The notes below the pieces were generated by a model. The model ran no database searches, had not been told where the DNA came from, and saw only the letters and a list, made by a program, of their open reading frames with translations. Below are positions 6,942-60,539 of a stretch of DNA of 64,000 nucleotides, piece after piece (the stretch's first letter is position 1; the number at the start of each line of letters is the position of its first letter). The translations under genes were made by a program, and so were the position numbers. The stretch lies in contig NC_059438.1 of NCBI RefSeq assembly GCF_021028975.2, positions 15,376,001 to 15,440,000 on the forward strand, written 5' to 3'. The DNA comes from Sphaerodactylus townsendi. Lineage: Eukaryota.

Positions 6942-19624
<12,683 letters not shown>

Positions 19625-21374
19625 TTATGCAACAGTAGTTCCAAAACCTAAGGCTCTACACATGCAGACGTTAACAGTCTGAGCTTACATTTGATTTCTA
19701 TAGAAGATTACTCAGGATTACACTTGAACTGAACATGCACAGTGTGGCCAACCTGGCAGCGTCATCATTGTATGCCAAGTTACCCCAGACTAAACCCTTG
19801 ACTTGACCTGTAGTAACTACACAGGATTGCACTGAGAAGGACGCATAAGGCTTTATAACACATCCCACGGAACATGAGCCACCACAGAAAAGGCCCTGAT
19901 TTTGCTTTTGAAAGAACAATCAGGGCAGAAACATCTGCAAACAACTATGCATGGCGCTTATATTTTGAGTTTCTTCGACAGCGGGAATATCTCATTCCAT
20001 GCTGTCGCTTTGAAGACTGGGGAATGGCAACTTGGGGAAGGAAATTAGTAAAACGGACACCTTCTTCACAGGTCTCCTGCATCATGTCTAGCTTGACTGG
20101 TTGTGATTTCAACCAACTGGGTCCAAAAATAGAGGGAAAAGCTGCTCCCAGAAAAGTTGTCAGCACCAGACACTTCACTAATCAGAAGGTACTCTGGCCA
20201 ATAGTGAACATGCATTTCCTAGCAAACCCAACTGGTTTTCATTTATGGCGTCAAATTCTGGTGAGCATATAACCGGCGAGACAGTTCTGGGCAGGATTCT
20301 CCATGGAAGAAGGAAAGGAAGAGGAATGCATCTCTGATCGCAGCAATTCCTCGTTTCATGACAGAGTGCTGTGGCACCTGAATGCCACCAGACCCTGGAA
20401 AAATAAGAAATTAAAGCACACGCTGCCTCCAAGGCATGGCCCAGTTCAAAATGGGGACCGACCACTACGTGGCTCGGTCTCTTTTAAATTCCCAAGTGTC
20501 TGTGATGCTCTGAGTGCTGCCCGCTTTGAATAAACTTTGAGTAAGGCAGAGAACCCAAAACCAACATTGAAAATACTAAATCAAAGTGACACTCTATTTT
20601 AGAACCAACACTGGAGCATCTAAGGTCACCCCACTGTAGGTAACAAAACCCTCTTGTTTCAATACAGTCAGAAGTCTACCCCCAGCAGCTAAGAAACACA
20701 AACACTGTGCAAAGGCTTTTATATGAAAAAAATGCATAAACAATTTATTAAAAGCGGAGAATGCATACCATGTGTTCTGATACCACAATAAAAGGGCTCA
20801 GTGGCCTACAAGGCATCCTTTTCCACACAAACCGGCCCTATTCTGAGATCGTTACCCAGCCCTTGGAGGGTAGGTTGGCAGCTACTGAAGGGGCAATGCC
20901 TTTTCTGTAATGGTTCCCCAATTCACTTGGCATCTACTTCATCATTGCTGGGCACAGGTGGGCACCACTTCAATCCTCTCAGCTTTTAGCTATATGCAAC
21001 TGCAGGTCTGCTGAGATTTTTTTAGTGGATCTATTATATGTCCGCTGGTGTTGATTTTAGCCTATTTGTCCTTCCGTTCTCGTATCATTTTTGCAAGTTA
21101 GTTATATAGGTAAGAGAGTGGGGGTAGAAAAGCAGGGCGGAATTACTTTTCCAAAGTAAGTTAAATAATTGATTTGGTGCCTAGAGGCTATTAAGTGTGG
21201 GGATGAGAGTTAACAAGATGAAGCTGAGACAGAACTGATGGCAACCAGAGGCCCTTGCAGATTGCAGGAGAGAACGCACAAGAGAATGCACGGATGGGGA
21301 GATCGGCTATGGGGGCTAGGGCCATCCTCTCTTTTTCCTATATGAATCCACCCTCCTATATGAATCACCCCACC

Positions 21375-21505
21375 TTCGGAACTCTCTCAGCTCCACCTAC
21401 CTCACAAGGTGCCTGTTGTGGGGAGAGGAGGGGAAAGGAGCTTGTAAGCCACCTTGAGTCTCCTTACAGGAGAGAAAGGTGGGGTATAAATCCAAAAATC
21501 TTCTC
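21375..21505 (+). mobile_element. SINE 3' fragment (Squam3-like)
   Basis: ctctctcagc...ggagcttgtaagccaccttgagtctccttacaggagagaaaggtggggtataaatcc. Confidence 0.75.
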
Positions 21506-21995
21506 TCTGCTTGCGTTCGGTATTTACACAGCGTTTTCCAAGCCCAGACGTGCTCCTAAGCTTCTATTAACATTCTCAAGGTAAACCTAGGAAGATAGCC
21601 AGGCTCATTTTAATCCAAACTGGCAATAGTAGCAGGTGGTGCTGAAACCAACTGAACTGTTGTCTGGTGGACAGGGAATGCAGCCCTGCAGCCCACTTCT
21701 GTTCCGGCTGCACGGTTCAAATGGCCACAACCCACGCCCAAGCAAAGCTGCAAGCCAGGCAATATGAGAGAGAGGGGGAGCACACGTGTGCCCTGCAATC
21801 TGCTGTACCCTGTGCTGCCTTTGCACATGTATCTCAGTCAAATTTTCCCAACGGGGAAGAATTCGCACCTCTACCGTACTGAAAGCCTGAAAACTTGCAA
21901 AGTGTTTTCATACTTCCTTCTGTAACAGAGTAGGCAGTGAACTATTTGTTATTCCATCACAAACACCTTGAGATTACCAACTGATACATGCAACT

Positions 21996-22129
21996 TAAAA
22001 AGATAAAGGTAGCCCTCTGTGCAAGCACTGGGCCACTACTGACCCACGGGGTGATGTCACATCACAATGTTTACAAAGCAGACTACATTTATGGGGTGGT
22101 TTGCCACTGCCTTCTTCAATCATCTACAC
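21996..22129 (-). mobile_element. Sauria-type SINE 3' part, cut off at the MITE
   Basis: Reverse-complement match to the 3' half of the SINE at 44302-44562; stops abruptly at 22129. Confidence 0.75.
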
Positions 22130-22277
22130 CAGGGGTAGGGAACCTGCGGCTCTCCAGATGTTCAGGAACTACAATTCCCATCAGCCTCTGTCAGCATGGC
22201 CAATTGGCCATGCTGGTAGGGGCTGATGGGAATTGTAGTTCCTGAACATCTGGAGAGCCGCAGGTTCCCTACCCCTG
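22130..22277. mobile_element. Young 148-bp palindromic hAT MITE with non-matching flanks
   Basis: Two 74-bp arms with 3 mismatches; left 8-mer atctacac, right 8-mer atctagtc. Confidence 0.9.
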
Positions 22278-22402
22278 ATCTAGTCCAAGACCTCCACCTG
22301 CCAGCCAGATACCTTTGAGAGCTCCAAGAAAGGCATCAGAGGGTGGGGTGGGTGTTCAGTTTTAGCAAACCTACACACGCCGTGAAAGGGAACAATTCCT
22401 AC

Positions 22403-25400
22403 TTTTTAATAAGTGGCTTCCAGGCCGGACTTTGTGTACAGATGTCAACAGCAGTACTGTTGGGGAAGGCCGTTTTTTCAAGTATCTGGAAAAAGAAGAG
22501 AGCTGTTAGGCTTTATCATGAAATCGACTATTCTCCGAGATGGGCACGTCCTAAAATTCTGCCTCACCAAAAACACAGAGAGGGCTGGATCCAGCCAACA
22601 TTTTCATTCAGCCTCTTGCCATTTCACTTCTAACTACAGCCATTGCCCTATTATCACGTTTCATGTTCCCCAACATAGCCATCAGGGAGGGGAGTGTCAA
22701 AGGAGCCCCTCCTTTCCATGTTCGCCAGGGGAAAAACTGGTTAGATTCAACCCAGTTAGCAAGGACGGGATATTCTGGTGGATTCTACCTTCTTTGGAAC
22801 CAGGTGGTTCATGAGAGCCGTGTGAACCTCAGCGGAAAGGCAAAGAGGGGACATTAGCTTCCCGCCTTCTTCGTAGGAATTTTCCAAGAAGGCATCACTT
22901 TCGTCACTACTGGATAGTTCTTCCCACTCATCGTCGGAGGGCTCTGAGAATACACAGAAAAAAAATACCAGATTTGGGAAATGGGAATCAGATCTGAAAT
23001 ACGAAAATCCAGAGGAAAATGGCAACACATTTTTACACACAGTTGATGCTTTCCTATTTCTCTCAAATTTAGGCAAAATGTAATGAAGTTGCTATATCAA
23101 ATGCATTTGACACCTCACAGAGTTTCCACTCTGTTTCTTCATTATTGTTCTAGTCCTGAAGTAGAAGAAAACCTTCTCAACAGGTTAGTTTAGATGCTCT
23201 CAGGAAGTCTCCAGGTGGTGGCAGCCGGTTACCAGAGTGCTTTCCAAGGAACCCTTGATCAAAGGAAAGTTGTCCAGCAAGGAAATGGACAGTTCCACCC
23301 CTTCCAGCATGGTGTAGTGGTTAAGAGCAGGTGCACTCTAATCTGGAGAACCAGGTTTGATTCCCCACTCTGTGACTTGAGGCTTATCTGGTGAACCAGA
23401 TTAGCTTGTGCACTCTCACATGCCAGTTGGTGACCTTGGGGTAGTCACAGTTCTTTCGGAGCTCTCTCAGCTGCACCTGCCTCACAGGGTGTTTGTTGTG
23501 TGGGATTGAGAAGGGAGAGAAAGGAGATTGTAAGCCCCTTTGAGTCTCCTTACAAGAGAGAAAGGGGGGTATAAATCCAAACTCCTCCACTTCTTCTTCT
23601 TTCATAATAGACTGCAATCCTGACACATCAACACATAGATCAACAAAAGACGTGCATTTATTGTCAAATGAAAAGTCACTTAAATAAGGCTGCTAAAGAC
23701 GTACCCTCACTACAGCACATATTCACGATGATTTCCAGAGCCGTCTGTTGAGCCAGGAGTAAAGAAGTTGCCTGTTTCAGCTCCTGCTTACTGCGCTGCA
23801 AAGCAAAGAGGAAAATCTGGGTGTTAAAGAGAATCTGGGCTGTGCATTTGGAAATGGGACTCAGGGGCAAACCTGCCAGTTCCCCTACAGCCGGAGGGTC
23901 AACCTCACAGAAATAGGAAGCCAGGTGGCCTGAAATCAAGAAGATATCCTGTTCATGTTTGTTTCCACGGTGAAAGCCCACATCCTCTCCTCACTTTACC
24001 CCAGGATAATTTTGCAGCATCACCTAGAACCTAGTCAACTAGGCCGCACTCACTGGGAGTAGATCCGAAATATCATTGTTTCCTTTAGTGTTTTTTGGAG
24101 GCGTTTCTTCCATCGCTTCATCCTCATTTACTTCCGAGCTGCCCCTGTCATCCACGCTGCCCTCCACTCCCAGCTCCGGTGAAGTTTTCAATCGTTCGGT
24201 TTCCTCCTCCTTCAACCGAATCACTGCCTCGCCGGCGTCCGGTTCTAAGCATTCTGACAGGGTCTTCAGGATAGCGTTAACGGTGCCTGCTTGGCTCCCG
24301 GAGGGTACTGTGCTCTTTATGTTCCAAATTATGCCTTGAGAAGGGGAAGAAAATGAGACTAGGCTAAAGACCCACAGTTGCCATGATGCTCAAACTGTGC
24401 AACGAAACCGAAGCTACAACACTGCTTTGGATCCAAAGAAGAAGAGTTTTGGATTTATACCCCACCTTTCTCTCCTGTAAGGAGACTCAAGGTGGCTTAT
24501 GAGTTCCTTTCCCTTCCCCTCCCCACAACAGACACCTTGTGAGGTGGGTGGGGCTGAGAGAGTCCTGAGAGTACTGTGACTAGCCCAAGGTCACCCAGCA
24601 GTTCATTCCACGAAATGAGCCGATATATGGGGGCTCATCTGTTTGCATTGATCAAAGAAGAAGAGGAGGAGTTTGGATTTATATCCCACCTTTCTCTCTC
24701 GTAAAGAGACTCCTTCCGGGATACTCCTTTCCCTTCCTCTCCTCACAACAGACACCTTGTGAGGTAGGTGGGGCTGAGAGAGTTCTGAGAGGACCAGCAC
24801 TAGCCTTGGAATGTCACCCAACAGGAGCGTAGGAGTGTGGAAGCTTATCTGAGTTCACCAGATGCAGCCTCTACCATTGGGTGGTGGAGGGTGGGGAATC
24901 AAACCCGGTTCTCCAGATTAGAATCCACCTGCTCTTAACCACTACACCACACTGGCTCGGATGGATCAGACCAACTGTCCATTTGGTCCAGGATCCTGCC
25001 TCACACTGTGGTCAACCAGCTCATCAATAGACGGAGGGCTTCATACTGCCACATACTGCCAACCCCCCCCTCCCCCCCCCCCCAAGTTGCAGATCAAGTT
25101 ATTATTTTTTTTCTTTTGGAACAGGAGAGGAAGGATTTGTTTTTAAAACTTCAAAAGTAAAAAACAAATCAACAAAGCATTCCATGACAGGTAGGAAATA
25201 CAGCATTCAGAATGTTTGGCTCGCACTTCAAAGAGTCATGTTACACATAGAACAGCATTGCTAGGATGCCACAATAATCTGCAGGAACTCTGACCAATAG
25301 TAATTCGTCGACAGAGGTTATTGTCCAATTAAAAAAATTCAACCTGCCACGAGCGTCCGTAGGAGAATGTGCTCCACAGTTTTGCCTGATGATACCATAG

Positions 25401-28400
25401 CCATTTCCAGCAATTGGTGTGCGGAAGAGTCAAAGGCCGAAAGCAGATCTGGGTTATCTTCTGTCACGGCCTGCAAGCAAGATGCTGTGGAAACAAAGAC
25501 ACATGGGAAACTTTTCACTTTCTCTGGCTCACTGATCCGATTCAGCTTCAGCCAGATTGCGTGACTGTGACATTTTAAAACCTAAATTATCCCTCTGAGT
25601 CACCATTTTCCTGCCACTTACCCACTGCCACAGCCAGGTCCACATTTGTCTGAAATCTCTTCAAATACTGGAGCACGACAGGCAGGCATCCTTCTCTGTT
25701 GAAGATGGAGACGGCTGTGCTGTTGCTTTCGCTAACAAGGAAACAAAGAGCTTGAGCAAACTTGCCTGCCTTATACTGAATCAGAAGAATTTCTATACCT
25801 TGGCTAAACTCTATTGAAATATCAAACTGGAAGTGCAAAATGACAATATATTAAATGTCTACATAAGCATGGACACAATGACAATTAGCCACAGAAGTCT
25901 TGCAAGAAGTCAGTACATATCCAATATTGGTGCTCAAATACAAAAACAGTTATCAGTGCAAACACATGAGGCCTCTGGTATCTACTTGTTTCATGGACCC
26001 AGTGTCTTCTGGTGAGCATCATGACCGACAACACGAATTTGAATCTTGGTCTCCCCCATCCCATCCAATCCCCCAATCATTACCAGACTGGGCCGCTATC
26101 ACTTATATCTATTCCGGAATAAGGCCAACATCAAGTATTCACTCATACAATAAAACAGACCCACAAACCGTGTTAACAATGCTTGCTCAAGCAAGACACA
26201 ACTTAAGAGTACAATCCTATGCAGAGTTACTCCAGTCCAAACCCACTGGAATTAAAGTAAACAAATTGCATGCCCCATTGGTACCGTTGTTTTCTCTGCT
26301 CAAGAAACAGAGCTGTTTGTTTCTTTGCAAGGACTAAACCTCGTCCCTCCATTTGGTTCTCAAAAGGGGTGAACACAAACGCACACATACGCAGCAGCTA
26401 TTTCCAACTGGCACTTACCACACATTCCACAACAAGTTCACGGCCTCATTGGCTATGTCTTCAGTATAATTCTTGTTTGTGTCTTTGGTGCCTTTCACAG
26501 AGCCGTTGCTCTCCTCCAGCCCTGACTGGCACTATTGTAATCAAGGCAGTCCAAATAAAATAAAATAAAAATAAGTTGAAACATACTTCACTGTCATTGG
26601 AGAAGTTATATTTGTTAAGTCCTAGAAAGAATGTTAAAACTAACTCTGCAGAGAGAAGAATGTCCTCTTTCCTAGCCACTGGCAGCAGGTAACAGCCAGC
26701 ATAATGATTAGAGTGTGAAACTAGAATCTGTAAGACCCAGGTTTGAATCTCAGTTCCGCCTTGGCAGTCACACGCTCTCAACCTAATCTACTTCACAGGG
26801 GTATTGCAAGTATGAAACGAAGAACAATGTAAGCAGCTTTAGGTCATCACTGAGGAAAAAGGTGGGATACAAATGAATCGTTGTCAGATCTAGAGACTGG
26901 AGACAATAATCGGACTTATGATATTGAATCAGAAGTCTTTATTGATCCCAGCAAATACCTGGCTTTCAGAAAGCCAGTTCTGCTGGACTAAGACAAAACA
27001 GACGCCTTTTCCCCCTCAGGTTTCCCGCCAGAATTCCTCCCTCCCGGATTCTCATGGAATGTGAGAAAGATACAATGGAAAGAGGTCTCAAGGCCAACGC
27101 GGCGATAGCTCTCTGTCACTTGCTGTAGTTAAGTACAGTTACAAGCATCAAAGGACAGAGAAATAGCAGAAACTAATATCCATTCACGTGTCAGAAAGTA
27201 AAGGCAATTGCTTCCCCCTCCCCGCTCAGGTGTGATTCTTCGCCCTGCCTCAAACCCCTTGGATAGCAGGAAGACAGCATCCTGACAATCATACGACTCC
27301 TGAAATTCCCCAAACACCCACAAATCTGGAGACAGCTGGATTAAATGGATCAATGCCCACCCTCAGTGTAAGGTTAAGTCTATTGTTGGGCTGTAGAGGA
27401 GAGCAATGCTGTTATTGTAATTGTATTTTCTTGTCCTTTAGTCCCCTGAGGGAGACACTTTACTTCATTTATGCTCCTCCTTTTGCCCCAATGAAAAAGC
27501 AGCATTCTCCCCACCTCCATTTTATCCAGCTGACAACCTTGTGAAATAGTTTAGCGTGAAAGCATGTGACTGGCCCAATGCCGCAACCACCCCCAGCTTC
27601 CACGGCAGAGCAGGAATTTGAACCTGGGTCTCCCAGATTCCTAGTTTGGCACTCGATCCCGCTAGCCCATGTTGACACAGCCCATTTTAATCCAGAAACT
27701 GGTGGAAACAAAGACCACAGCAAGTCTGCATACCTGCTTCAGTAGAGCTACGAGGGGCGTCATGACATCTTTCGTAACCATGTCGTCACAAACGTCAAAC
27801 CCTCCGCAGGCGCTGAGATTGCTGTAAACAAAAGCCAAAGCACAGAAATGTAGAGATGGAAGGGGTCTCAAGGGTCATCCAGTCCACCCCCCTGAACAGT
27901 GCAAGAAACTCACAACGGCCTCACCCAAGGGCCCCTGCTCTATCTCCAGACAAAGGCAAAAAACCTCCAGGATTCTTGGCCAATCTGGCCTGGAGGAAAA
28001 TTACTGCTTGACCCTGAAGCAGCGATCAGCATTTCCTTCGGAATGTAAGAAAAGGCCACAAGAGGCTGAGAACTGACTCGTCCCTCACCTCAAACACATA
28101 TTTTCCCCCCTTTGGAACAAATCAGGTTGATGGGTTTTTTAAGTTGAGTTGACCTATTCAAGATGAATGAGTCATTCAACCGTTACCAGCCAAGATGGCT
28201 GAATGGAACCTCTACGTTTACAGGCAAGCAATGCCACAAATATGGGATCCTGGTGACAAATATGGAAGGCTGCGATCTGGATTCCCCACAGTTGGGAACA
28301 GGACACATGAAAAGATGGCTCTTTGGTCTGAATCCAGGTGACGCTTTCCAGGTGAAAGGCAAAGCAGAAGAATCTACTGAAGCACCGTTACGTCTCCAAA

Positions 28401-29958
28401 AGCATCATCCCGCTCTCGTTTGCCTGTCCCACTCCACCAGACAAGATTCAGGACTCACCGAAGGGCTCCCGTAGCCGTCTCTCGGACCGCCAGGCTCTGA
28501 TCGAGCAGCATGGGCCCCAAACATCGGACGACATCTCTTTGGACAAAGGCCGGGATTGTCTGCTTCTGTTGCAGGAGTTTGGAAATGCTGGCACAAGCAA
28601 ATTCTCTCACATCGGCACTAGGGTCTTGCAGCTACAAAAAATATAGATATATGAACGAGCGAAGTTAGAAGCTTGCACAATCATGTGTACCCTGTTTTTC
28701 CCCTGCAGGGTCCAACTATACAACGACAGCCAGCTACGGTTGGGTCTTAACCCAGAATCTGGAGCCACAGTTCAGGTTTGTTTACACAGGAAGGTTTCCT
28801 TTCTCTCCATGGCATGAGTATATTCTGAACGTTTTGTTCTGTTTTCCTGAGAAGAACTGGAGGGAACTGTGCTAGTACCAGGAGTCGGAAAAGCGTTCTC
28901 CGTCTATGATCCAAGGGAAAGAGGGAATAAGAAATTGGGATTCCACCCCCCACGAGTTGTTGCGGGTCTTCCACTTATTTGTATGAAACTGTTTTGTTGA
29001 ACGCTGAAGTTGGTTCGAGGGGATCACCCCAAAGATCCACCAGCCCAAAATCTGGCAGAGCATTTATCTGGGCCAAGAAACACCTGTTAGTAAGTCAAAT
29101 ATCAGTTAAGTATTTTAGCTAATATTAATTAAGCATTTTTAAAAAAGCATTAACTGTATCAGATTACAACTGGAGAAACCTGATTTCAGAGGGCCACTCT
29201 ATCACCCAGTGGAGCGCTCACACTTCTTCAGCACCTACCTCGAAGGGCTGTGGTGATAACAGCGGAGGGAAGCCCCGTGCCTGAGGAGGATGCACAGGGC
29301 TTTGTAAAAATACGAGATAAAGCAAAAGAGGTGCAGTACAGTGTAAAAGCATAAACAGAAACAGATCACCGTACTGGCGGCTGCTAAAAAGACCAGTACT
29401 ACATACATACATAGGCCTTTACTGGGATTAAAAGTATAACCCAGTATAATAATTAAAAGGAGCCACAGTTTGATTCACGTTAAAAGTAATATAAAACAGA
29501 GCAGGAAACAACATTATAAAAAATGCATACGTTATAATTTCTCAGTACCTACAACTGGCACTTATTCCGAACAATTCCTAACGGCGCCCTGTAGGAAACC
29601 GGCTACCCTCTCACTGCAGAAGGACTAGGTCCAATTGGTTATAAAGTGCAGCTACTGGACCTCCGCAGAGCAACCCTACAAACCGTCATGCACAGGAGCC
29701 GGGTTTATGCCAGGGCGTTGGCAACCCCAGTTTGCAAGAGGGCATGCAAGACTTGCGGCTTTTGGACCCAGAAGAAGGAAGCAGGGAAGGAAGGAAGGAA
29801 GGAAGAGGGCCGGGCTGCTTGCTCTTCCCCACCTTCTCCAGCAGCTCCGCCGCCGCGGCCGCCTCCCCTCCTTCGGCCTCGCCGCTTCGGAGCGGCTTCG
29901 GAGCCCCGGCCGGCGAGAAGGGCGGCCGCCCGAACCGCTTGGCTTTGCTCTTGCCCAT
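22403..29958 (-). CDS. HEATR3: HEAT repeat-containing protein 3 (Syo1 homologue), exons 1-10 only; 3' exons absent
   Basis: Exons: 29958-29833 ([16 protein letters not shown]...AAELLEK), 28631-28459 ([14 protein letters not shown]...[11 protein letters not shown]), 27821-27734 ([29 protein letters not shown]), 26531-26419, 25731-25622, 25484-25344, 24334-24054, 23795-23705 ([17 protein letters not shown]), 22943-22789 ([18 protein letters not shown] acidic loop), 22485-22403 ([27 protein letters not shown]). All are GT-AG with consistent phases; 1361 nt total and no stop codon is reached. Confidence 0.96.
23304..23602 (+). mobile_element. tRNA-derived SINE (Squam3-like)
   Basis: Head cagcatggtgtagtggttaagagc...ggtttgattcccc (A/B-box-like); (TTC)n tail. 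Confidence 0.85.
24437..24957 (-). mobile_element. Two tandem Squam3-like SINE copies (24437-24601 partial, 24655-24957 full)
   Basis: Two successive gaagaagag-tttggatttata...cacctttctctc starts. Confidence 0.8.
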
Positions 29959-33454: not shown

Positions 33455-36400
33455 TTACTGGACGTGAAGGCGGGGTTTCAATATTAGCTTTCCAGTCTGG
33501 GGAGGAAAGAAAAGAATCAAACTTCACACCAGCTTCAGCATTTTAGTTCCATTTCTGTATCGATTTACAAGTTTTAACTGCTCACATCAGCACGGCGTTA
33601 AACCACCAAATGCGGAATAACCGAGAAATCCCAAATACTGATAGTTTTAGATTAAACCTTGAATACCAAAGAGAGATTGGATTGTATCCTGCTTTCCTGC
33701 TCAATAAAATTCAAAGGCTTCCACCATCCTGAGTCAGTTTTCCAGAGAAATAATAATCACTTAAGCTAAAGAAGGCTTGTGTGTCTGGGGGGAGGGGGGG
33801 CATCTTCTTTGCACAGTGAAGCAACAGGGTAGAGACATCAAATGCATTTTGTACTGCTCAAAAAAATTGAATGTGTCCGATCCTCATCTTTCTCTGTTGC
33901 TAAAATCAACCTTTTGATTTTAGCACCTTTCTAACTGTAGGCTGCCTATGGGCCCAAGGTTTCAAATGAGGACCACCCAGTCTGTAGAAGACAAACAGAA
34001 AAAGGGATTTATGGATGCTCCTCTCTGATGGGAGGGAGAAACCAGGAGCAAGTAATGCAAAATGGCACAATGAAGGCCAAAGACAGGGGAAGTCACAGAG
34101 GACAGTTCAACACACAAGCCAAAAGATCTTGCTCTGTCCCACGTTATACTTCTGACTCCAGCTCCAAAACTCACAGATAAAGCCGGAACAACTTACATCA
34201 TCGCAAGACATATTGTACTCTGCCAGGACCGTCCGACATCGAGCGGCTATTCTGCACACAGTGTGTCAAAGAAATATGTCAGGCTTTAGACTCTGAATAA
34301 GTAAAGCAAGACTTTACTGATGCATTACTTGTATTCTCATAATCCATCATTTTAACCACTTCATTGCACTGGTGTGGTAAAGGCATAGGGAAATAATGAG
34401 AGCTTAAAATCTATAGGGAAGGATAAGGCAGGTTCCTCTAAGTGTTTTAATTCCAGAATGTTTGGCCAATTGACCTCTGCTTCATCTGCTAACAAGCCTT
34501 GTAGCAAAGGAACCAAAATTGGAAGAGCTCCTAGATAGATAAAAAGGGATAGGAAGGCCAAATTACACTTTCAACAGTTTCTCCCAGAAAAGATTATATT
34601 CACTTAAGTTTTGTGGGCATCTCTTGGAGTTCCCTGACTTTTTTATTCCTATAATTCCTTGCAAGCCTTTACAGACTGCATCCCCTCTAGATACTGAAAA
34701 CAGCTGCTTGCTGGAGAGAGAATTAGGTCATGTCTCTATGGTTAAGAGTGCCAGGCTGAGAAGAGACAGAGATGACCAGTGTAGTCGTGTCTCTATGGTA
34801 AAGAGTGCCAGGTGGGGAAGGGACAGAGGTGACCTGTTGTCACATCCAAATAGTTCCAGAAGTGAGAGTCCTTTGAAGCCAATGTGTTTGTGTTCTATGT
34901 TTTCACTTGCCATTCCAAGAAGACTTATTATTCCCAGAAGAAACAATACTTTAAAAAGAAAAAAAATCGAACACCAAGTAATTCTGCTTGAAAACTTGGT
35001 AAAATAAATGACCATTACTGTTTGGCATACATCTTGCTATTTCAACCAGGAAGTACTCTGAAAAGGATACATCGAGGGCGCCACAACTCTTTTATGTATT
35101 CCAGCAAAAAATAACCCTATCAGGGTAATACAGCTAATGGTGAAGAATGGGTGATTCCACAGTGATGTGAAAAAAGATACCTAGGAGAGAACCAAAAGAT
35201 TATTCTATTGAAATTCCCACTGATTTAAATGAATAGACTTGCAGTTAAAATACTACTACTTTTTTTTTTAATTCCAGAACACTTGCAGCCCAATCCAAAG
35301 GAATGGAGAGGGAGAAAAGTCCACAGTAAAAATTAGTTATGCTATCTTTTTTAGTGGCATAAGTCTGCACCACTGATGTGGAGTCTGAAAGTCCTTTGGG
35401 AGCCAACTAAAGTAGGTTCCACCCTGGGAAACCCCCCGGAACATTGGTGTGGGCATTTGCAGCAACAGCTAGCCACTTCAGGGGCCAGCTTCTAGGTTGG
35501 CGACTGTGGTGGTTGGCGGCCAAGGGAGGTCCCTTGGCGCCGGCGTCCATGCCAATTTGCATGCCACTGGTGGCATGGAAGCCGGCGCAACCCTTCTGCT
35601 TTTTCCAACACGGCTTCACACCCCGCCCCCTTTGGATTGCTCAATGAATGTTGCAGTAGACAGAAATAACACACAATCATTAATAGTTTCTGATGCTCCT
35701 ATTCACCATCAGCTTCATTCTACCAAAGTTATTTCACGCCACTGAAGTCATTCCCATGTGGAGTTACTCCTCTGATTTTGAAGGGCTCATGATGGAGTAA
35801 CCTAGCATCATTATCCCTCTCCAAACACTGTATTTAAAGCTAATTCAAAAAATGCAATAGGAACCTCACACAGTTGAAACCTCATGGGAAGATAACACCT
35901 ACTTTCTGGGTTTCTGGATCGATCAGCCAGTTCCAAGCACCAGTAGCTGTACATACAGACACCACTATAAGAATTACTAATGAAAAAAAGTGAAAAAATC
36001 AAAATAAGGTTATAAGAAAGCAATAGATAGTTCTTTGTTAGAGACATCCTGTCGAATACTTTCTGCATTATTTCAAACTTTTGCTCTCTTAGTCATATAG
36101 TATTGCTTATTAGATGTCCCCACTGACTACATTTCTACTAAAACAATAGGCCTGGTTTGTATAAAAAAGAGCACTACGAGTTAGATGGACAGTAGTACTA
36201 AAGACATGTTGCTGGTAATTTTCTTCATATAGATACTCTTTTTCTCTCCCTCAGTATAATAATACAGCATGCTTTAAAAAAAAGTTTGAAAGTATATTGG
36301 TATGATCTGATCCAAGTATTAATTGCCCATTTCCAACCCCATTGGAAAGCCACAGACTTACTTCTCCATCGCCCCGTAGCTGGTTGCAAACAAGCGATGT

Positions 36401-38597
36401 ATTCCGTAAGTCTCCTTTCAAAAGCCTTGAGATCTGGAACAGAGGAAACAAAAAGCTAAGTATGCTTGCCCTATTTAAGTTTGTGCTTGGGATTCCTGAG
36501 CTTTGTTTGCAAAATAACAACAATAATGTGCCTCAAAATACTGGGTAAGAACCCAAGGATTCTTACACATTCCACCACCACCACCCCCAATACTGAAAAC
36601 TAGTTTAAAAAATGGTAGTCGCCTGTTCTATTATTATTTTTTTCCTGTAGTAAGAAACAGGACGATATGGGGCTGCCTGAACAAAGCGATAACGTAGGAT
36701 TACTCTAGATCAGGGGTGTCAAACTCATTTGTTACAAGGACTGAATATGACACAAATGTGACTTGGATGGGCTGGGCTGGGGAGGGGGGTGGCTGCCTCA
36801 GTTGGTGAGCCTGAAGGGGCTGGCCATTCCAGAAGAGCACTGGAGGAAGCAGTCGGCACAGGGTGGGAGGGGTGACTGCCCCCGTTCATGAGCCCACAGA
36901 CTGCTTGCCAGCCCAACTGGCTCAGCAGGCCAAACCGGGGTGGGGGTGGGGTGGGCAGATTGAGAGTGGGGATCAGCTGGCTCACAGGCCCTCTCAAGGG
37001 GCCGGATCTGGACCCAGGCCACATGTTTGACACTCTTTCATCTAGGTCTGAGATGAAGACTGTTTATTATTCTCTGACATTTGATGTAAGACGCTCAGTT
37101 TTAAAAATACAAGTTTACACAATACACCACATATCCATTATTTGTTTGCAGCACGTTATAAAAGCAGGACTTTACTTGACCAGAACTTTGATTCTCTCCC
37201 ACACATTTAACTTCAGCACTTTTGTGTTCGATTTCTAAGTTTCATTTACTCTGAACAAACATCTAATAAAGGAGGTTAATCTAAAATGAGCAGTGAATGG
37301 TGTCTGCCGCTTGACCAGAAACACAAATACACGATTCCAGAAGGGTAGAGTTAGCCTGTTATAGCAAATGAGCCACTCTCCAATTCCTTGGAGAAAGCAT
37401 AAACTAAAAATATGCTAAATAAATCCACCCCCCCCCCCCCCCCCCACCCCCCCGGCTCGGGGGGTGACCTCAAAAAAGCAAGAATAAATACACTGCCTTG
37501 AGATTGCTGAACTGTGTGTGTTAAGTGCCATCATGTTGCTTCCAATTTATGACTACCCTATCAATTAATCTATTCCCAAACAACCTATGAACAAGGCTTA
37601 CTCAGGAGACACCAAACTAAGTGCTATATATGCTTCATTCTTTAGTGTGAAGTTTTAATTCAACATCTTGTTTCGATGTCTTCCTCTTTTCCTGCTGCCC
37701 TCAACTTTCCCCAGCATTATTGTCTTTTCCAGTGAGTTTTATCTTCTCACAATGTGAACAAAGTATAGTAGTCCAGTAATTTAAGCTTTTAAACTAGAAC
37801 CCACCAATTTGTCATTTTGGTGGTCCACAATATATGTGATTCTTAAGAGTGGGATCAAAATAATCTTAAAAAATAAACATATCTCTCTCTTACACACAAG
37901 CTAGCCCACCTCACAGGGCTATTGTGAGAATGAAAGGGAGGGGGCCAAACCATGCATGCTGACCAGAGTCTTTTGGGGGAAACAAAAACTATTTTTAAAA
38001 ATACAATCATAATAAAATAAACACCAGCAAAATTCATAGTAACCAGTAATATTAAACAGCAGCATAGAATTAAGCCCCCCCTTTTCCCAGGAAAGCAAAC
38101 CACTCAGGGGAAAATAAATGTAGTTTAAGCCAGTAGAAAGAAGAACTGCAGCTGTGGAGGAAGATTCCCATTTCAAGTAGTAAAAAAAGGTGCCAAGGAC
38201 TTCTGAAAGGAATTTATTGGGCTACCTGCTTCAGGCATTGAAACGACGCGTTTGTACCATTGTGCTTTCTGTGTTTTAAATGATCCTGAATTGTTGGCTG
38301 CCTGCTTGGAGCGCTTTGGCTAAGGCGGGGGTGAGTAAAACTTCCTTTCGGATGGAGAAACAAACGAATAAAGTGAAGGCGTAAATATGCCAGGAGGAAG
38401 AAAGGTGGCAGATAAAAGTTGCTACAATAAGGATACATGTTTACTTAAGACAGAATGATTAGGGGAAAGCAGAAACTTTTAGGAGAAACTGGAGAGAGGA
38501 AGAGCCGGCCAAAGGCCCCTTTCCAGTACCTCCCGCACGGTCCTTCTCCTCCCAGGGAGACCCCCCTCTTACCTTCCGCCTGTTCCAGCGAGTTCAT
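33455..38597 (-). CDS. CNEP1R1: CTD nuclear envelope phosphatase 1 regulatory subunit 1 (TMEM188), complete, 125 aa
   Basis: Exons 38597-38573 (MNSLEQAE), 36433-36362 ([24 protein letters not shown]), 35976-35903 ([24 protein letters not shown]), 35180-35071 ([36 protein letters not shown]), 34251-34197 ([18 protein letters not shown]), 33496-33455 ([13 protein letters not shown]). 378 nt = 125 aa plus stop, near-identical to the human protein. Confidence 0.98.
34252..35070 (-). other. U12-type (minor spliceosome) GT-AG intron in CNEP1R1
   Basis: Donor GTATCCTTTT; branch-point-like TTCTTTGAC at 34273-34265, about 15 nt from the CAG acceptor; no polypyrimidine tract. Confidence 0.88.
36711..37038. 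mobile_element. Older hAT MITE
   Basis: caggggtgtcaaac ... gtttgacac termini; inserted at a tctag-type target. Confidence 0.65.
37500..37830 (-). mobile_element. RTE LINE 3' fragment, degenerate
   Basis: Reverse-complement similarity to 16835-17140 (cttcctcttttcctgctgcc...cattattgtcttttccagtgag). Confidence 0.65.
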
Positions 38598-40479: not shown

Positions 40480-41200
40480 TCGGAAATTTTCTTGGCACCT
40501 AAAGCGCCACTGAACTCAGATATTGATCAATTAATACCTGGGAGGCCTTTGGCGTTGCCATGGCAGCCAGGTATGCCAGGCTAAGCCGCGCTTCCCCTCC
40601 GCCCAGCCGGCAGCGCTGTACGAGGAGGCCTGCCTGATGGATGGATTAATGGATCTCCGTTCTTATTTGGATCCACAGCATGGACTGGATTGGGGGGGAA
40701 AAAAAACTATACCGTTTGAAATGTTCTCGGCACATAAAATGCTACTGAACTCAAGGTATTGTTCCATTAAATAATGCCCGGGCGGCCTGGGCGTTGCCAT
40801 GGCAACCAGGTAGGCCAGGCTAGGCCGCGCTTCGCCTCAGGCCCAGCCGGCGGCGCTGTACGAGGAGGCCTTGCCGGACGGAGGATGAGCCCGTCCGCGC
40901 GGAAGAGGAGGAGCCGGGGAGGGGCGTCCGTGTTTGCCTTCCTCTCCCACAGCTCGGCCTCTCTACAATTGCGAACTGCCGCGGCCGTTCGGGAAGCGCG
41001 GAAAAGACCGCGGGGAAGGAAGCTCCGCGGAGCCGCGGCCTCGAGTGGCGAAGCTCGCTGGTGGACGACGGCGAACCGGGGAGGACGTCGCTTAGGTGAT
41101 CCGTATATTTGCGGTGGGGGGTCGGGGGGATAACGTCGGTGTGTAAAGTAGGGTCAGCTGCCAGGCGCCGTCGAAGGGGGGAGCGGCCTTCCTTTCCTCG
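40480..41200 (+). promoter_or_regulatory. CpG island, likely promoter and non-coding first exon of the NCOA5-like gene; two RFX X-boxes
   Basis: CpG-rich 40770-41200; GTTGCCATGGCAAC at 40793-40806 and GTTGCCATGGCAGC at 40554-40567; candidate donor ag|gtgatc at about 41096. Confidence 0.65.
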
Positions 41201-41502: not shown

Positions 41503-41630
41503 NNNNNNNNNNNNNNNNNNNNNNNNNNNNNNNNNNNNNNNNNNNNNNNNNNNNNNNNNNNNNNNNNNNNNNNNNNNNNNNNNNNNNNNNNNNNNNNNNN
41601 NNNNNNNNNNNNNNNNNNNNNNNNNNNNNN
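41503..41630. other. Assembly gap (128 N)
   Basis: Run of N. Confidence 1.
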
Positions 41631-42150: not shown

Positions 42151-44301
42151 CCGCTGATGCATAACGGTGGGGGGGGGGGGGACCAGAAGTATTACAACAA
42201 TTGTTTAATGTATTCTCCTCTCCCCTCCCCTAACTTCTTAAGGGAAAACGTGCCCCACCTCTGAGACGTAATGGTGTGGGAATGGGTAGGCGAAGAGTTT
42301 TCATGGCATGGAGATAAATAAGATCAGAGCATCCCCGGTTGAATAACATGCCATTAAATTTTCTATCGTGGGAGCAGAAATTATTTCCCCTCTTGGTTGC
42401 CGGCAGCCCTGCCGCTTGTGTTTTCTAGCATCCTTTGCAAGTGGAAATGTTTTTCTAGCATTTCTAGAAGCAACGAAAAGGCATTTGTAGAAGCAACAAA
42501 AAAACCCTCCGCTGCTGCAACGTTTTCTCTCTCTGAAATGTACCCTGCGTGCCTTGTCATTTTTGTTCTTGAGTATCCTCCTCAGATGTGTAATTCTGAA
42601 ATAGTGGCTGTTTTATTCTGTCTCGCCACCCGTCACCAAATTGAACAGGAGCCCACTGGTACACTAAAGCTTGCCAAAATGTATTCTTAGCATAAGTTTG
42701 CCTGGATTTGAGCTCACTTCATCGGGCGCATGGATTATATTTCTGTGTAGAAGATACAGTTGTGGCTTTGTATGAAAAATAAGGTCGTTTCAGACTTTGG
42801 CAAAGGGCGAGAGAGAGTTAGAGTTGCTGAAATAGAAAGTGCCACCCCACATGGTAGTTGTTGTCCAGAAACCCCACCCCACTTGGGACCCTATACCCCT
42901 GAAATACTGCAGTATGCAGAATGGCCACTAGATCAAGTCTTTTTGTTATGACTCAGTAAAGTTCTCCATAGCCATCCATCTTCCAAGAAGTCCTCCCTTA
43001 AACCCACCCAAAGTTCAGACCCCAGTATTCCATAGGCCCAACAATATAACCAAGGGAAAACTCTGGCTTTCCCAACAACTGGCTCTTCCCTGATCTCTGG
43101 GGAATCTCAAACCATGATAATTTCTTCCTCCTATCAGATAGGCCAAGTATATTTTATATCCTCCATTTAATCTCCCTTAGATAGCAACATCCCACTCTCT
43201 TTAGAGTAGCTTTCCATAGGACTGGATAGCACACCAGCCTCCTTTGGATATACACAGTACTCTGCTGTTTAGTTTTCATTATGGTCTACCTTTCCCCATT
43301 TATGCTGTTTCTTTAAATAAAAAAAATTGAATTGACTGCTTTTTTGCCTCTTTCCATTTCTGAGAGATACAGGCTTAAAGTTCCAAACAGATAGGAGTTT
43401 GTAAGCGCAAAAAAAGAAGGCTACACCCATGTGCGGGAAACAGTTTGTGTAAAATGCTGTAGAGGTGCAGGATTTCTCTGTGTCTGTTCTTTTCTGTATA
43501 TTAGTAAATTAAGCAAATCGTTAAAAAAATGCTGTCCGTCTGCTGTGTTCTCAGCAGGAAACCAACCCATGTAAATTACAATCCCCAGAGGTTTTCACTG
43601 GTTTAAGAAGTGGAGCATGCATAACAGTATTTATTATTAGCAACCACACATTCTCAAACCGTTCTCTCTTTGCTTTGCCCATGCAGTTGAACGAAGTGAT
43701 AAATCGTACTGCACTGCTTCAGCGTGGACGCTTGAAATGTTTCTTTGCGTAAAAAGAGCTCCATGCAACTAGGTTTAGAAAGTAGCCATATTGATCTGTG
43801 GTAAAACAGCTGTTTTTGAACCCAGTACCACCTTAGAGACCAACAAATTTTTTGAGGTATGAGATGTTGAGAATCAAAGCTGACAAAGAGAGCTTTGACT
43901 GTGGGAAGCTCATGTCCTAATCTTGTTGGTCTCTGAGGTTCCACCGGACTCAGATATAACTGTTCTCCATGCCACTGGAAAGCCAGTGCATGGGGAAGAG
44001 AGGTTCTTTTGCCTCTCTGAGGTAACAGTTTCTCTACCTTAGGGTAGTGTACTTCATTCTCTAGTTATGTGTATGCCAGCTTGGACTGTCCTTGTTGAAC
44101 TGTCTTGCTCCCCCCCACCCCAGCTGTATGTCATCATGTTCAAAACAGCAGGTTGTGATTACATGTTGCGCTTTCTGGGATGTTCCCCTAAGAGACTGTG
44201 ATATTTCTATCTTGTTGGAATGGAAACTGCAAGCTGTTAGTTCCGACTGGATGTCTCTTCTGGATTTTTAACTGTTTGTGTGGCCCAAATTAGGAGTCTT
44301 G

Positions 44302-44562
44302 TGATACGGAGTGGTAAGCTGCAGTATCGCAGCAAAGCTCTGCTCACAACCTGAGTTTGATCCTGACAGAAGTCGGTTTCAAGGTTAACTCAGCTTTCCA
44401 TCTGTAGCCAACTGACATGGAGAAGGCAGTGGCTAACCAGAAGACTGGAGAAGGCAGTGGCTAACCAGCCTGTAAACATAGTCTGCCTAAATACATGTAG
44501 TGATGTGATGTCACCCCATAGGTCAGTAATGGCTTGCATAAGGAACTACATTTACATTTTTA
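44302..44562 (+). mobile_element. Sauria-type SINE
   Basis: tRNA-like head ggagtggtaagctgcagta...gagtttgatcc; tail acatttacatttt. Confidence 0.7.
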
Positions 44563-45772
44563 AGGCCCAAATTAGGTGGAAAGGTGGGGTTTTAATAAAT
44601 TACAGTGGGTCATGAGCAGAGAGGAAAGTAGTTCACTTCTAGGTGCATAAACTTAGCTTTGTACCACAGAGGCATGCAAAAATTAGCAAACAGCTCTAGA
44701 GGAAGAGTCCCTCATGACATGGAATATGATCAGTAGATTTACAGTAAAAATCAAGAGCATCTATTCTAGACTCTAGAGAATGTCTTCCAAGGAAGAACTC
44801 AGCTGGTTCCATTCATATGCTGACTTTGTTTTTGAAACATATACATAGGTACTGCAAGAAGAGACGGGGGTAAGAAGAAATTGTGAGTGAGGGGGAATTT
44901 CCTAGTTTAGGAAAACAGTGGGAGAAGATTTATGATATTACTAAGGGGTAGTTGAACAAAACTGCCTTCATTTTATTTCAGTAGTACAGTATGGACGGAA
45001 CAATGCTTCTGTTCTACTGGTAGCAGATACAGAATTTGCCTAAATAGCCAGGTCCCAAATCGCTAGACCTCAAAAGAGAAATTCACCTTTTCAGTCATCT
45101 CCTGGTAAAAATCATGGGAGATTTATTGAGACATGCCAGTGAAGTCCCTCTGGAACCTTTAATCATCTCTCTGTCTCCTTTTTTTAAAAAAAAAAAAACC
45201 TCTTCTGCAAAAAAGCTGTTCCAGGATGTACATGGACCAGGTCAGGATTTTTTGTGTGGGTGCCCAGTGACCAACCACAACAGCATCGGCTTTGCAAAAA
45301 GGAAAATTAATTTGAAGTCATTGATTACAAAAAGGGAAAAGATATATTAGAGCAAGCTGATATAACTGCAGAGCAACAGAAAAAAGAAAATAAGTGATAG
45401 AGGCACCCTCCTCTCCCAGATGTTAAGAGTTGGCCCATTACGAATAGTTCATTAAGAAAAGAAGCATAATCTTCGTTATCAGATTTTGATGTCCATCTTT
45501 TTGCTGTGTTCCTGGGGATTTTTTCTCCCCCCCCCCCCCATTCTTTTTGTCAGCTAGGCTATTCTTTCTCTCCCACTGCCCATCTCTGAGGGCTGCTCCC
45601 CTAGAAATCTTGGTATTCCGAGCAAGACAAAACATTCAGAGTTGCCTTCCTTTGCCATAACTGTGCAGATAATGACGCAGCAGGGCTCTTAAAACGACTG
45701 CATTTCGACAATACTTTCTCACTTTTATTTCAGCGTATAACGGGCTTTCTCTTTATTCTTTTAGAAATTAAA

Positions 45773-48700: not shown

Positions 48701-51700
48701 CCGCTCCACAGCTGCATGCCCTGGTGTTCTGTTCGACGGGCATGCTTCCAAACAAAAACTTTGCTACGACTTACTTTCGGGGGATGTTTTATATTTAGCA
48801 CTTCAGCAAAACCTCTACTACGTCTTATTTTCAGGGGATGTCTTATTTTCGGGGAAACAGGGTATGTCGAGTGACCTGACTGCCTAGTAGTGAACTTTGT
48901 GGGGAAGAAAGAAGTTAATAGGAACTGATCCCATTAATTTTTTCCCTACCCGTTTGCTTTGGCATGTAAAAAAAATTGCATATGAGTTAGTGGGAGTACA
49001 TCTAATAATTTGTTTACATGGTTTTAGGATACCAGTCCTTCCTGTTGCCTCTCCTTGGTCCTTACTGCTTCTTCTCTTTCTTTATGTGGCATAACGTCTT
49101 AGAGTGTGGTTGGTTTGCGCTCTTGAAAGTCTAGTGTTTTGGGGTTGTTATGTTCAGTTCATTAAGAACATCTGTTTATCTTCCGGGAAGACTGGGATTG
49201 TTTGGTGTTATCATTTCCATGTGCTGTTGTGAGTTCTGAAATGGCTTCCTTTCTCGATGAGCTTTCAAAATTTCATGTATCAAAGGATTTAGGTCAGTGG
49301 TTCTCAACCTGGGGGTCGTGACCCCTTTGGGGGTCAAATGACCCTTTCACAGGGGTCGCCTAAAACTCTCTGCATCAGTGTTCTCCATCTGTAAAATGGA
49401 TAAATGTTAGGGTTGGGGATCACCACAACATGAGGAACTATATTAAAGGGTCGTGGCATTTGGAAGGTTGAGAACCACTGATTTGGGTTTTCTCTGTTAA
49501 AAAAATAGTCCCATTTAAAAAAACAACAACAGTTGTTCAGGGAATTTCTCCTGTAAAGTGATCAGTGTTTAGCACATCATAGCCAGGTAAATTTAGAAGT
49601 TCGAGTACACTGAGGACTTTCATAGGCTAACTTTATCAGTGGTAGTTCTGAGGGGAAGAAAAATCTTTGATATGTTTAATATAGTGATATGTATAGAATT
49701 GTGCCATATATGTGCTGCTGAGTAATTACTTCTGAGCAATATGCCATAGCACAAACATTTACTATCACTATTATTAAATTTATATCCCACCTTTCTGCCT
49801 GCACAAGAATTCCCAAGACGTCTAAAGATTTAAAACACTTGTGATTAAAAAATGTATTTGTACACACTTCCCTGTCTGATAAGAATCTTCTTAGGCAATA
49901 AGTGGATCCTGTTCCGGTCACTTTTTCTGCATAACCAAAATATCTTCCTGGTTTATCCTTTCAGTCTATTATTCCCTCATAAAACATTGCTGACATCCGT
50001 AAGAAGCCAACCTGTAGCACTTTACCATCATATTGATATGGTGGCTGATGCTTGCAGGGCATCTTCTGCACAGAGTAACTGTTGCTTTTTCACTTTGGTT
50101 CCAGACAAAGACCCGGGTGGATTCCACGACTTCTGGAGTAAGTAAATCACAATAGATGCATTTCAGTGGTTAAATTCCTTTCGTTTGTTTGTTTGTTTGT
50201 TTATATATAACATTTAATATACTGCCCCACCCCCGAAGCGCTCTGGGCAGTGTAAAATCAACAATACAACATCATAAAAATGTTAAAACCACAACCCTAA
50301 CAGTTAAAACATCTCAGATGGCAAGCTCTACCTAACTCCCCAGAGGTGGCCACATCCTACTTTCGTATGCACACACATCAGTGGCTGTCTCCCCCAAAGG
50401 CCCGGTGGAACAACTCTCTTTTGCAGGCCCTGCAGAACTGTCCAAGGTCCTGCAGGGCCCAGATCGTCGGAGGCAGACCTTGGACAGTTCCACCAGGCTG
50501 GGGCCAAGGCACTAAAGGCCCTGGCCTGGGTAGAGGCCAGCCGCATCATAGAGGGGCCAGGGACCACCAGCAAATTGGCCTTTGCAGAGAGCAGAGGCCG
50601 TGTGAGGACATAGGGGGAAAGACGTTGCTGGAGTCTTCTTCTCATCTTGTACGTAATTGTTCCCTTCTGTATTCCTTTAGCAAACACAAAAATTATTTCA
50701 ACCTGTTTTTCTGGAAAAGTGTTGCCAAAAATAGCTTTTCACCAAAAAGGTTTATGTTCACAATAATTTTGAAAAATAACATAATCTTTACTTGCAAAAA
50801 AAGTGCCTTCTTCTGTGTTGAGTTATTTGTTGCTCAGAAATCGTTTTAAGTTCTTCAATGAATTCACACATGTGAAGAATTCGCAGTGGGCTGCTGACAA
50901 AAATGACGCCTGAAAAGGCTGACAGTGCAATCCTATGCAGTGTTACTCCAGCGTAACCCCATTGAAATGAACGGGCTTAGGAAGAGGGCAGTGTCTGGTG
51001 TCTTTTGTCTTAGGTTGATGACTGTCCTTCCCTCTGTGCCTCACACTTTCTCTTTCTCAGCGATCTCAAAAGAATTTTCTGCACCCAGTGTGAGGTGCGG
51101 AGAAAGGAGATCTCTTTCGGGTTGGCGAGCTTTGCTAATAGTGAGCAGAGCTGAGAAAACACGTCCCGAAGTCCTCTGTCACTGCTTTGCCAGTGGAAAG
51201 TGAAAGCCCCAGCCTGAACTACCTGAAACAGGATTTGAAATTCCCTGGGGAGAATGTTCTTTATATCATCAAATAAAGAGTTCTACTCTAGTCAAACATA
51301 AGTTCTCTTGGCAGTCATTCTGGTTTTTTTTCTTCTTTTAGTATAAATCCCTACAAAACTGTTCAGAAGAGCTCTTACCCTCCTCCAGACGGGTATTCAA
51401 AGGACTATGAAGATATTAACAGGTCAGAACAGTTTTCCTCAGTACCTATTTAAATTTCAACTTGTCCCCGCTTCCATGGCTCAGGGTAGGCAACTGTCGT
51501 TTGTTCCTTTGAAAGTTTCTGGTAACACCGGGCTTGCTTGGCATAGCCTCTGCTCCCCAAATCGAAACCCATTAAGTCTTGCATCTAAAGGTGGATTTAA
51601 CACACAGCTTGGAAAATTAACCCATGTATGACAGCCAACTCCTAGCAACATATAGCCCTAAATGGTTTCTATTTCATTAATTGTATAGATTCACTGATGA

Positions 51701-60130: not shown

Positions 60131-60539
60131 TCAAGCAATCTGATCGGGGTGGTGGGCCCGTCTGGGTTTGCGCGTCACAAAGCAGTGCAACCACCCGTCC
60201 ACCAGCATATTTGCTCTCTCTTCCGGCATCGGTGGGCACAAGGCCACGCCGTTCCCACAACCCATTTCAACCCTCTTCCCTCTGGATTGGGTTGTAAGGG
60301 TCAAAGTCCTGTTCAGAACACGCTGACTTCATTTCTCTTTCACTGCTTCAGTTCTTTCTCCTCAGCGGAGACCCAAAGCAACGTTCCTGTGAGGTAGATT
60401 AGGCTGAGAGTACGCATGGTCTAATTTTACCTCGTGAACTTCCTTGCAGGAGTGGGGATTTGAACCTCGACAGACCCAGATTCATTTGGCCCCTCTAACT
60501 GGGACATGACAGAGTAGGCAGCTTATCAGCGGAAAGGTG

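Follow-up and report, generated by a model that had tools for sequence, protein, structure and literature searches.

Both the collapse of repeats and deletion between repeats are well known. After a deletion of the Alu-Alu type, in which non-allelic copies recombine, a single chimeric element is left whose TSDs do not match and whose flanks stem from two loci. The element described here, from the gecko Sphaerodactylus townsendi, is alike in that its TSDs are also unmatched and its flanks likely come from two loci. The second group of comparable cases is that of false gene losses and repeat collapses in vertebrate assemblies built from short reads. In the available text of Kim et al. 2022 (PMC9516821), GC-rich first exons are typical false losses, and neighbouring exons of conserved genes are lost near repeats, which results in wrong gene models. 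The present locus resembles these cases in both respects: a probably GC-rich first exon is missing together with its promoter, and neighbouring exons are missing beside a repeat. It differs from them in having no N-gap and in a break that can be placed at one 148-bp palindrome.

The palindrome itself was compared with the non-autonomous Charlie/SPIN-related hAT families of Anolis (hAT-N1_AC, hAT-HT2N and hAT-N5_AC) in the accessible part of PMC3014272. Shared features are the YARNG motif, a 16-bp end of the CAG...AACCT type, an 8-bp TSD, a preference for NTCTAGAN/NYYTARRN, small size and high copy number. By eye, no listed anole TIR is identical to the terminal 16 nt of the gecko element, and, unlike the anole elements, the gecko element is palindromic over its whole length.

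Two genes are affected. HEATR3 is the Syo1 orthologue involved in 5S RNP/uL18 import, and TENT4B is the non-canonical poly(A) polymerase PAPD5. Both are full-length in other geckos, whereas in this assembly HEATR3 ends at residue 454 and the first exon of TENT4B is missing. Two sites have very probably been joined at one MITE. The join was probably made by genome assembly, and the HEATR3-TENT4B fusion is probably a misassembly.

The window is the whole stretch of DNA that we analysed, 64,000 nucleotides of contig NC_059438.1 (positions 15,376,001 to 15,440,000), and all positions below are counted from its first letter (Table 1). Logan contigs were compared for four of the nine sequencing runs that contain the stretch: X1 and X3 (samples of organism A), X4 (organism B) and X5 (organism C). 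No RNA run is listed among the nine, and the four compared runs are not on record as RNA.

An earlier note on this DNA had described a 148-bp palindrome with three mismatches between its arms. This holds for 22130-22277, with mismatched pairs at 22187/22220, 22190/22217 and 22191/22216. As DNA, the element folds into one hairpin of -91.5 kcal/mol, and none of 200 shuffles was equally stable. Both ends carry CAGGG..., in agreement with the YARNG terminal inverted repeat of hAT elements, a motif taken from the accessible part of PMC3014272. The family is short and high-copy, as expected of hAT MITEs. Summed contig depth over the MITE was in the millions in all four runs, compared to ~20-80 on the unique flanks, depth not being the same as copy number. 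Relatives of the MITE lie at 2313-2420 and 8900-8996 in the window; the latter is truncated and has no right terminus. At 7911-7959 there is a minimal element of 49 bp with a perfect TSD.

Table 1. Features at and around the HEATR3-TENT4B junction, in window coordinates.
Feature	Position	Strand	Evidence or remark
TENT4B, exon 2 to stop	6945..19601	-	tblastn, 4 gecko orthologues
TENT4B exon 2, first TENT4B exon present	19478..19601	-	acceptor phase in-frame with HEATR3 exon 10
5'-truncated high-copy SINE, unbridged, alternative junction candidate	21374..21500	+	contig breaks
Left host repeat, cut at MITE	21994..22129	+	72% to 44564-44439; continuation absent right of MITE
Left 8-mer ATCTACAC	22122..22129	+	one mismatch to NTCTAGAN
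hAT-type non-autonomous MITE, palindromic, 148 bp	22130..22277	.	likely two-copy merge
Right 8-mer ATCTAGTC	22278..22285	+	one mismatch to NTCTAGAN
Right host repeat, cut at MITE	22278..22324	-	aligns to 12642-12696; head absent left of MITE
HEATR3 exon 10, last HEATR3 exon present	22403..22485	-	phase 2 donor
HEATR3 exons 1-10 (residues 1-454)	22403..29958	-	tblastn, 3 gecko orthologues

The 8-mers on the two sides of the MITE, ATCTACAC and ATCTAGTC, differ at two positions. The earlier note was right to call them unmatched, although it did not stress that 6 of the 8 letters agree. A matched 8-bp TSD is missing at the 22130-22277 copy and present at the related copy at 2313-2420. All four TSDs quoted earlier were found: CTGTAAGA at 728/1174, GGTTAGAC at 2305/2421/2920, GACTAGAA at 7903/7960 and TTCTAGGG at 13789/13983. 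An element at 49295-49480, which that note had omitted, has a TSD with one mismatch. There are six pairs of termini less than 400 bp apart, of which three have no mismatch, one has a single mismatch, one has two (22130-22277) and one has five; this last pair (8900/9196) is probably not a true terminus pair. Two hAT-type elements stand in tandem at 2313-2919 with the common 8-mer GGTTAGAC at 2305, 2421 and 2920, the result of an insertion into an earlier TSD.

Each MITE flank is within a single mismatch of NTCTAGAN, which is the 8-bp target preferred by anole/lizard hAT families in Table 1 of PMC3014272, as far as that source was accessible. In X1, 72 contigs, and in X3, 71 contigs, have loose ends behind 22283; they continue from the MITE end as far as ATCTAG and part after it. 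ATCTAG is thus often found beside members of this family, in agreement with the NTCTAGAN target. Because both flanks fit NTCTAGAN and the contigs part after ATCTAG, the ATCTA present on both sides can be explained without a common TSD. An identical copy of ATCTAGTC lies inside the retroelement tail at 12642.

The left flank of the MITE is a repeat that we take to be a Sauria/Squam1-like SINE. Positions 21994-22125 align to 44564-44439 with 72% identity (E 4e-15; score 118, compared to a maximum of 36 in 500 shuffles). The repeat is dispersed, with copies in the window at 44250-44564 and ~58870-59060. The continuation of the repeat, taken from two other copies, was not found right of the MITE, where 99-498 of 500 shuffles gave an equal score. 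The right flank is presumably a CR1-like 3' end. Its alignment at 22278-22324 to 12642-12696 has a score of 42, which was reached by 0 of 2000 shuffles when aligned to that copy and by 0 of 60 when aligned to the whole masked window. The match is genuine, though short and gapped. Left of the MITE there was no sign of the head of the 12642-12696 copy, since 83 and 138 of 500 shuffles did equally well. The earlier note had stated that the left SINE ends at the MITE without resuming and that the right flank resembles 12642-12696 minus its left part, and both statements hold. A 75-aa frame in the 12590-13015 copy is presumably the end of CR1 ORF2; it matched 0 Pfam families and, in the protein atlas, fell among unnamed eukaryote clusters (0.96). 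Rfam gave 0 matches over 19000-24500. The accessible parts of PMC10702118 and PMC11303007 held no SINE or CR1 consensus sequence.

The HEATR3 and TENT4B exons that are present are ordinary orthologous exons. Residues 455-673 of the gecko HEATR3 orthologues are absent from the window, and tblastn past residue ~461 gave only hits of E 0.45 or worse. TENT4B exon 1 (~180 residues) is also absent from the window, the search with residues 1-180 giving only E 2.6 or worse. Both segments are present in other geckos. In the truncated HEATR3, the Pfam domain TPR_SYO1 is cut at profile position 43 of 259, with the loss of 216 of the 259 positions. TENT4B exon 1 is rich in Ala, Pro and Gly in other geckos and is therefore likely GC-rich. 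A 92-aa exon is 100% identical to a 454-aa HEATR3 record of Sphaerodactylus townsendi, while the HEATR3 records of other geckos among the 14 matches are all 640-673 aa long (6 of 6). Among 35 matches of short proteins to the HEATR3 C-terminus (455-673), none was named as coming from S. townsendi; this is compatible with discarded scaffolds and with a true deletion alike. The distance from the HEATR3 exon 10 donor to the MITE is 125 bp, exactly as given earlier. This phase 2 donor matches the acceptor of TENT4B exon 2 and would give an in-frame splice.

Gene models of the locus differ between databases. RefSeq has two separate truncated models, a 454-aa HEATR3 that ends with exon 10 and a 489-aa TENT4B whose start lies inside exon 2. 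UniRef holds a fused 904-aa model with HEATR3 exon 10 spliced to TENT4B exon 2. An annotation pipeline presumably wrote this fusion because the phases of the two exons match. The unfused RefSeq models suggest that no transcripts supporting the fusion were available to the RefSeq pipeline. The TENT4B model of Gekko kuhli begins at the same internal methionine, so a short TENT4B model is by itself nothing unusual in annotation. In Phrynocephalus forsythii, a 1025-aa model also joins HEATR3 to TENT4B, but there most of the HEATR3 C-terminus is retained, as is part of TENT4B exon 1; this model is an independent annotation merge of neighbours. Judged by titles and the openings of abstracts, the literature search found no report of a HEATR3-TENT4B fusion.

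X1 and X3 are samples of the same species, and the best one may be the source of the assembly, in which case it is not independent. Both gave contigs over 19300-21403, ~21470-22066 and from 22260 to beyond 23250. The third contig starts 18 letters inside the MITE and runs into HEATR3 exon 10. Both samples thus truly contain the MITE end beside ATCTAGTC and HEATR3 exon 10. Among the pieces listed for the four runs, none bridges the MITE, although contigs break in high-copy repeats anyway. None of the listed pieces bridges the SINE at 21374-21500 either, and all four runs break inside it. The left half-junction (SINE to MITE) and the reciprocal half-junctions were also not among the pieces listed. 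Contig joints from 21476/21496 to 22121-22202, as well as joints inside the MITE, were not counted, being attributed to other places in the genome where a SINE tail abuts a MITE.

A 1200-nt contig of organism B (X4) matches the window from 23250 down to 22283 and then continues for 166 letters. These 166 letters have no listed fit to the MITE or to the left flank. Eight X4 pieces are listed, as short as 79 letters, so a one-piece fit of the 166 letters would likely have been listed. We read this contig as an empty MITE site at which intron 10 would continue into DNA absent from the window. The flanks are not adjacent in this relative, the informative one of the two; this is equally expected of a young real deletion. 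The arrangement that would speak for one insertion site, an empty site with the SINE directly abutting ATCTAGTC, is not seen in this one informative contig. On the left, organism C and both organism A samples are collinear with the window to 22066-22068, whereas past 22031 an X4 contig continues for 60 letters that have no listed fit. Organism B may carry its own change near 22031. No X5 piece is listed at the MITE border.

Taken together, the unmatched 8-mers, the two cut repeats and the X4 contig without the MITE support the earlier proposal of two insertion sites, to which the two flanks likely belong. The MITE is then the likely junction at which the HEATR3 3' / TENT4B 5' segment is missing. 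This position is likely rather than proven, because the MITE is unbridged and a second unbridged repeat (21374-21500) lies between the genes. The location of the junction proposed in the earlier note is likely good; its suggestion of recombination in the animal as the cause fares less well. That note had put recombination and an assembler jump as equal, whereas the evidence leans to an assembly error.

For the misassembly we propose the following course. HEATR3 intron 10 would have carried one MITE copy, and a near-identical second copy likely lay in TENT4B intron 1. Short-read contigs presumably broke at both of these hairpin-forming, very high-copy MITEs. The intervening piece, with the probably GC-rich first exon of TENT4B, may then have stayed separate, and scaffolding or gap closing could have overlapped the two MITE ends. 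HEATR3 exons 11-15 and TENT4B exon 1 would have dropped out with the segment between the copies, and the small scaffolds would afterwards have been discarded.

Details of the assembly are compatible with such a course. In the accessible text of bioRxiv 10.1101/2021.08.13.456260, the assembly used SuperNova, Tigmint, ARCS, TGS-GapCloser, polishing and Hi-C; ~6.6 Gb of ONT data went into TGS-GapCloser, and scaffolds <10 kb were removed. This preprint describes assembly v2.2, and the version of the window may differ. According to the part of PMC7476103 available to us, TGS-GapCloser can collapse a gap by merging where a read suggests that the scaftigs overlap, and local misassemblies went up with ONT data in its own tests. 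A misassembly is favoured because the assembly relied on linked reads and on a gap closer able to merge contig ends, because the loss cuts the conserved SYO1 domain, because RefSeq left the genes unfused and because TENT4B exon 1 is likely GC-rich. Against a misassembly speak the join without an N-gap and the fact that no listed contig shows the missing segment in this species. Paired 150-bp reads usually span 148 bp, which also counts against it.

At 20253-20291, 1.9 kb away, the X1 and X3 contigs disagree with the window at 17 letters, most of which X4 has in common with them, and at 7 gap letters. No second copy of the segment 20245-20295 exists in the window. The discord is likely a local assembly error, a rare allele being possible, and it suggests that there was local assembly trouble nearby.

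A real deletion allele, counting all routes, is unlikely. Its main form, homologous recombination or single-strand annealing between two MITE copies, is quite unlikely. It would leave the same sequence signature as a misassembly, and the join without a gap, the matching exon phases and the lack of an S. townsendi C-terminal fragment in the 35 matches fit it as well, but only 148 bp of homology would have been available for it and the RefSeq models are unfused. The reference animal would probably have been heterozygous, with the deleted haplotype kept by the assembler, and an in-frame HEATR3(1-453)-TENT4B transcript from the HEATR3 promoter would be allowed. Such a deletion would have removed most of a conserved domain and a promoter, and assemblies based on short reads often show false losses of this kind, as described in the available text of PMC9516821. 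The single human HEATR3 C-terminal missense change Gly584Glu causes recessive Diamond-Blackfan anaemia, and yeast complementation fails with it (PMC9136880, accessible part). From its residue number, Gly584Glu would fall within the lost part of HEATR3. We infer that a fixed loss of the HEATR3 C-terminus is unlikely, because a conserved domain is cut, the protein is full-length in other geckos and Gly584Glu is harmful. It is highly doubtful that a MITE-mediated deletion, segregating or fixed, is transcribed as an in-frame HEATR3-TENT4B chimera. In such a chimera, the N-terminal import/armadillo half of a 5S RNP chaperone would replace the disordered TENT4B exon 1.

Very unlikely, too, is that the MITE was inserted only once, where two old repeat fragments meet, and that its TSD has since mutated twice. 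In that case the true junction would have to be sought in another place, the unbridged SINE at 21374-21500 being the most likely one. The agreement of 6 of the 8 TSD letters fits this explanation, as does the one-mismatch TSD of another element in the window, yet at an element divergence of 2-4% two changes within one TSD have a probability of only ~0.04. The contig breaks of all four runs inside the 21374-21500 SINE are also in its favour. The same can be said of the lack of a flanking direct repeat >5 nt at this SINE, although two other SINE copies have none either. The similarity of the right flank is short, as this explanation would have it, but both host repeats are cut at the element, and the X4 contig does not run on leftwards into 22129 as an empty single site would.

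Extremely improbable is a single MITE with an adjacent deletion made by transposase, one end being re-inserted at a second NTCTAGAN-like site: both flanks fit a hAT target, and maize hAT elements do delete by alternative transposition (PMC3744419, accessible part), but it requires a real deletion and meets the same objections as recombination, and the X4 contig shows only the right site to be empty there.

An assembly error behind wrong gene models is the most probable meaning of the MITE junction. If so, all three models of this species, the 904-aa one in UniRef and the RefSeq ones of 454 aa and 489 aa, are wrong, and HEATR3 should no longer be described as truncated or fused in this gecko. 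The case would also show that unmatched TSDs of a MITE can flag collapses that leave no gap. A real junction, in contrast, would mean a rare natural in-frame fusion of a ribosome-biogenesis chaperone with an RNA-tailing enzyme, the partner poly(A) polymerase being a trimmer and tailer of structured RNAs. The transposon breakpoint would then be datable and still readable, and a gene fusion would be seen at its birth.

Other features were noted elsewhere in the window. Exons at 35885-38520 (- strand), upstream of HEATR3, are presumably those of a CNEP1R1-like gene, which would fit the vertebrate order CNEP1R1-HEATR3-TENT4B. Exon-like open frames at 56894-60300 (+ strand) may be exons of an NCOA5-like gene. 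A gap of 128 N lies at 41503-41630. About 700 bp from it are two GC-rich copies, 40551-40604 and 40790-40843, which are 89% identical and 239 bp apart. The pair is either an old tandem duplication or a gap-side artefact.
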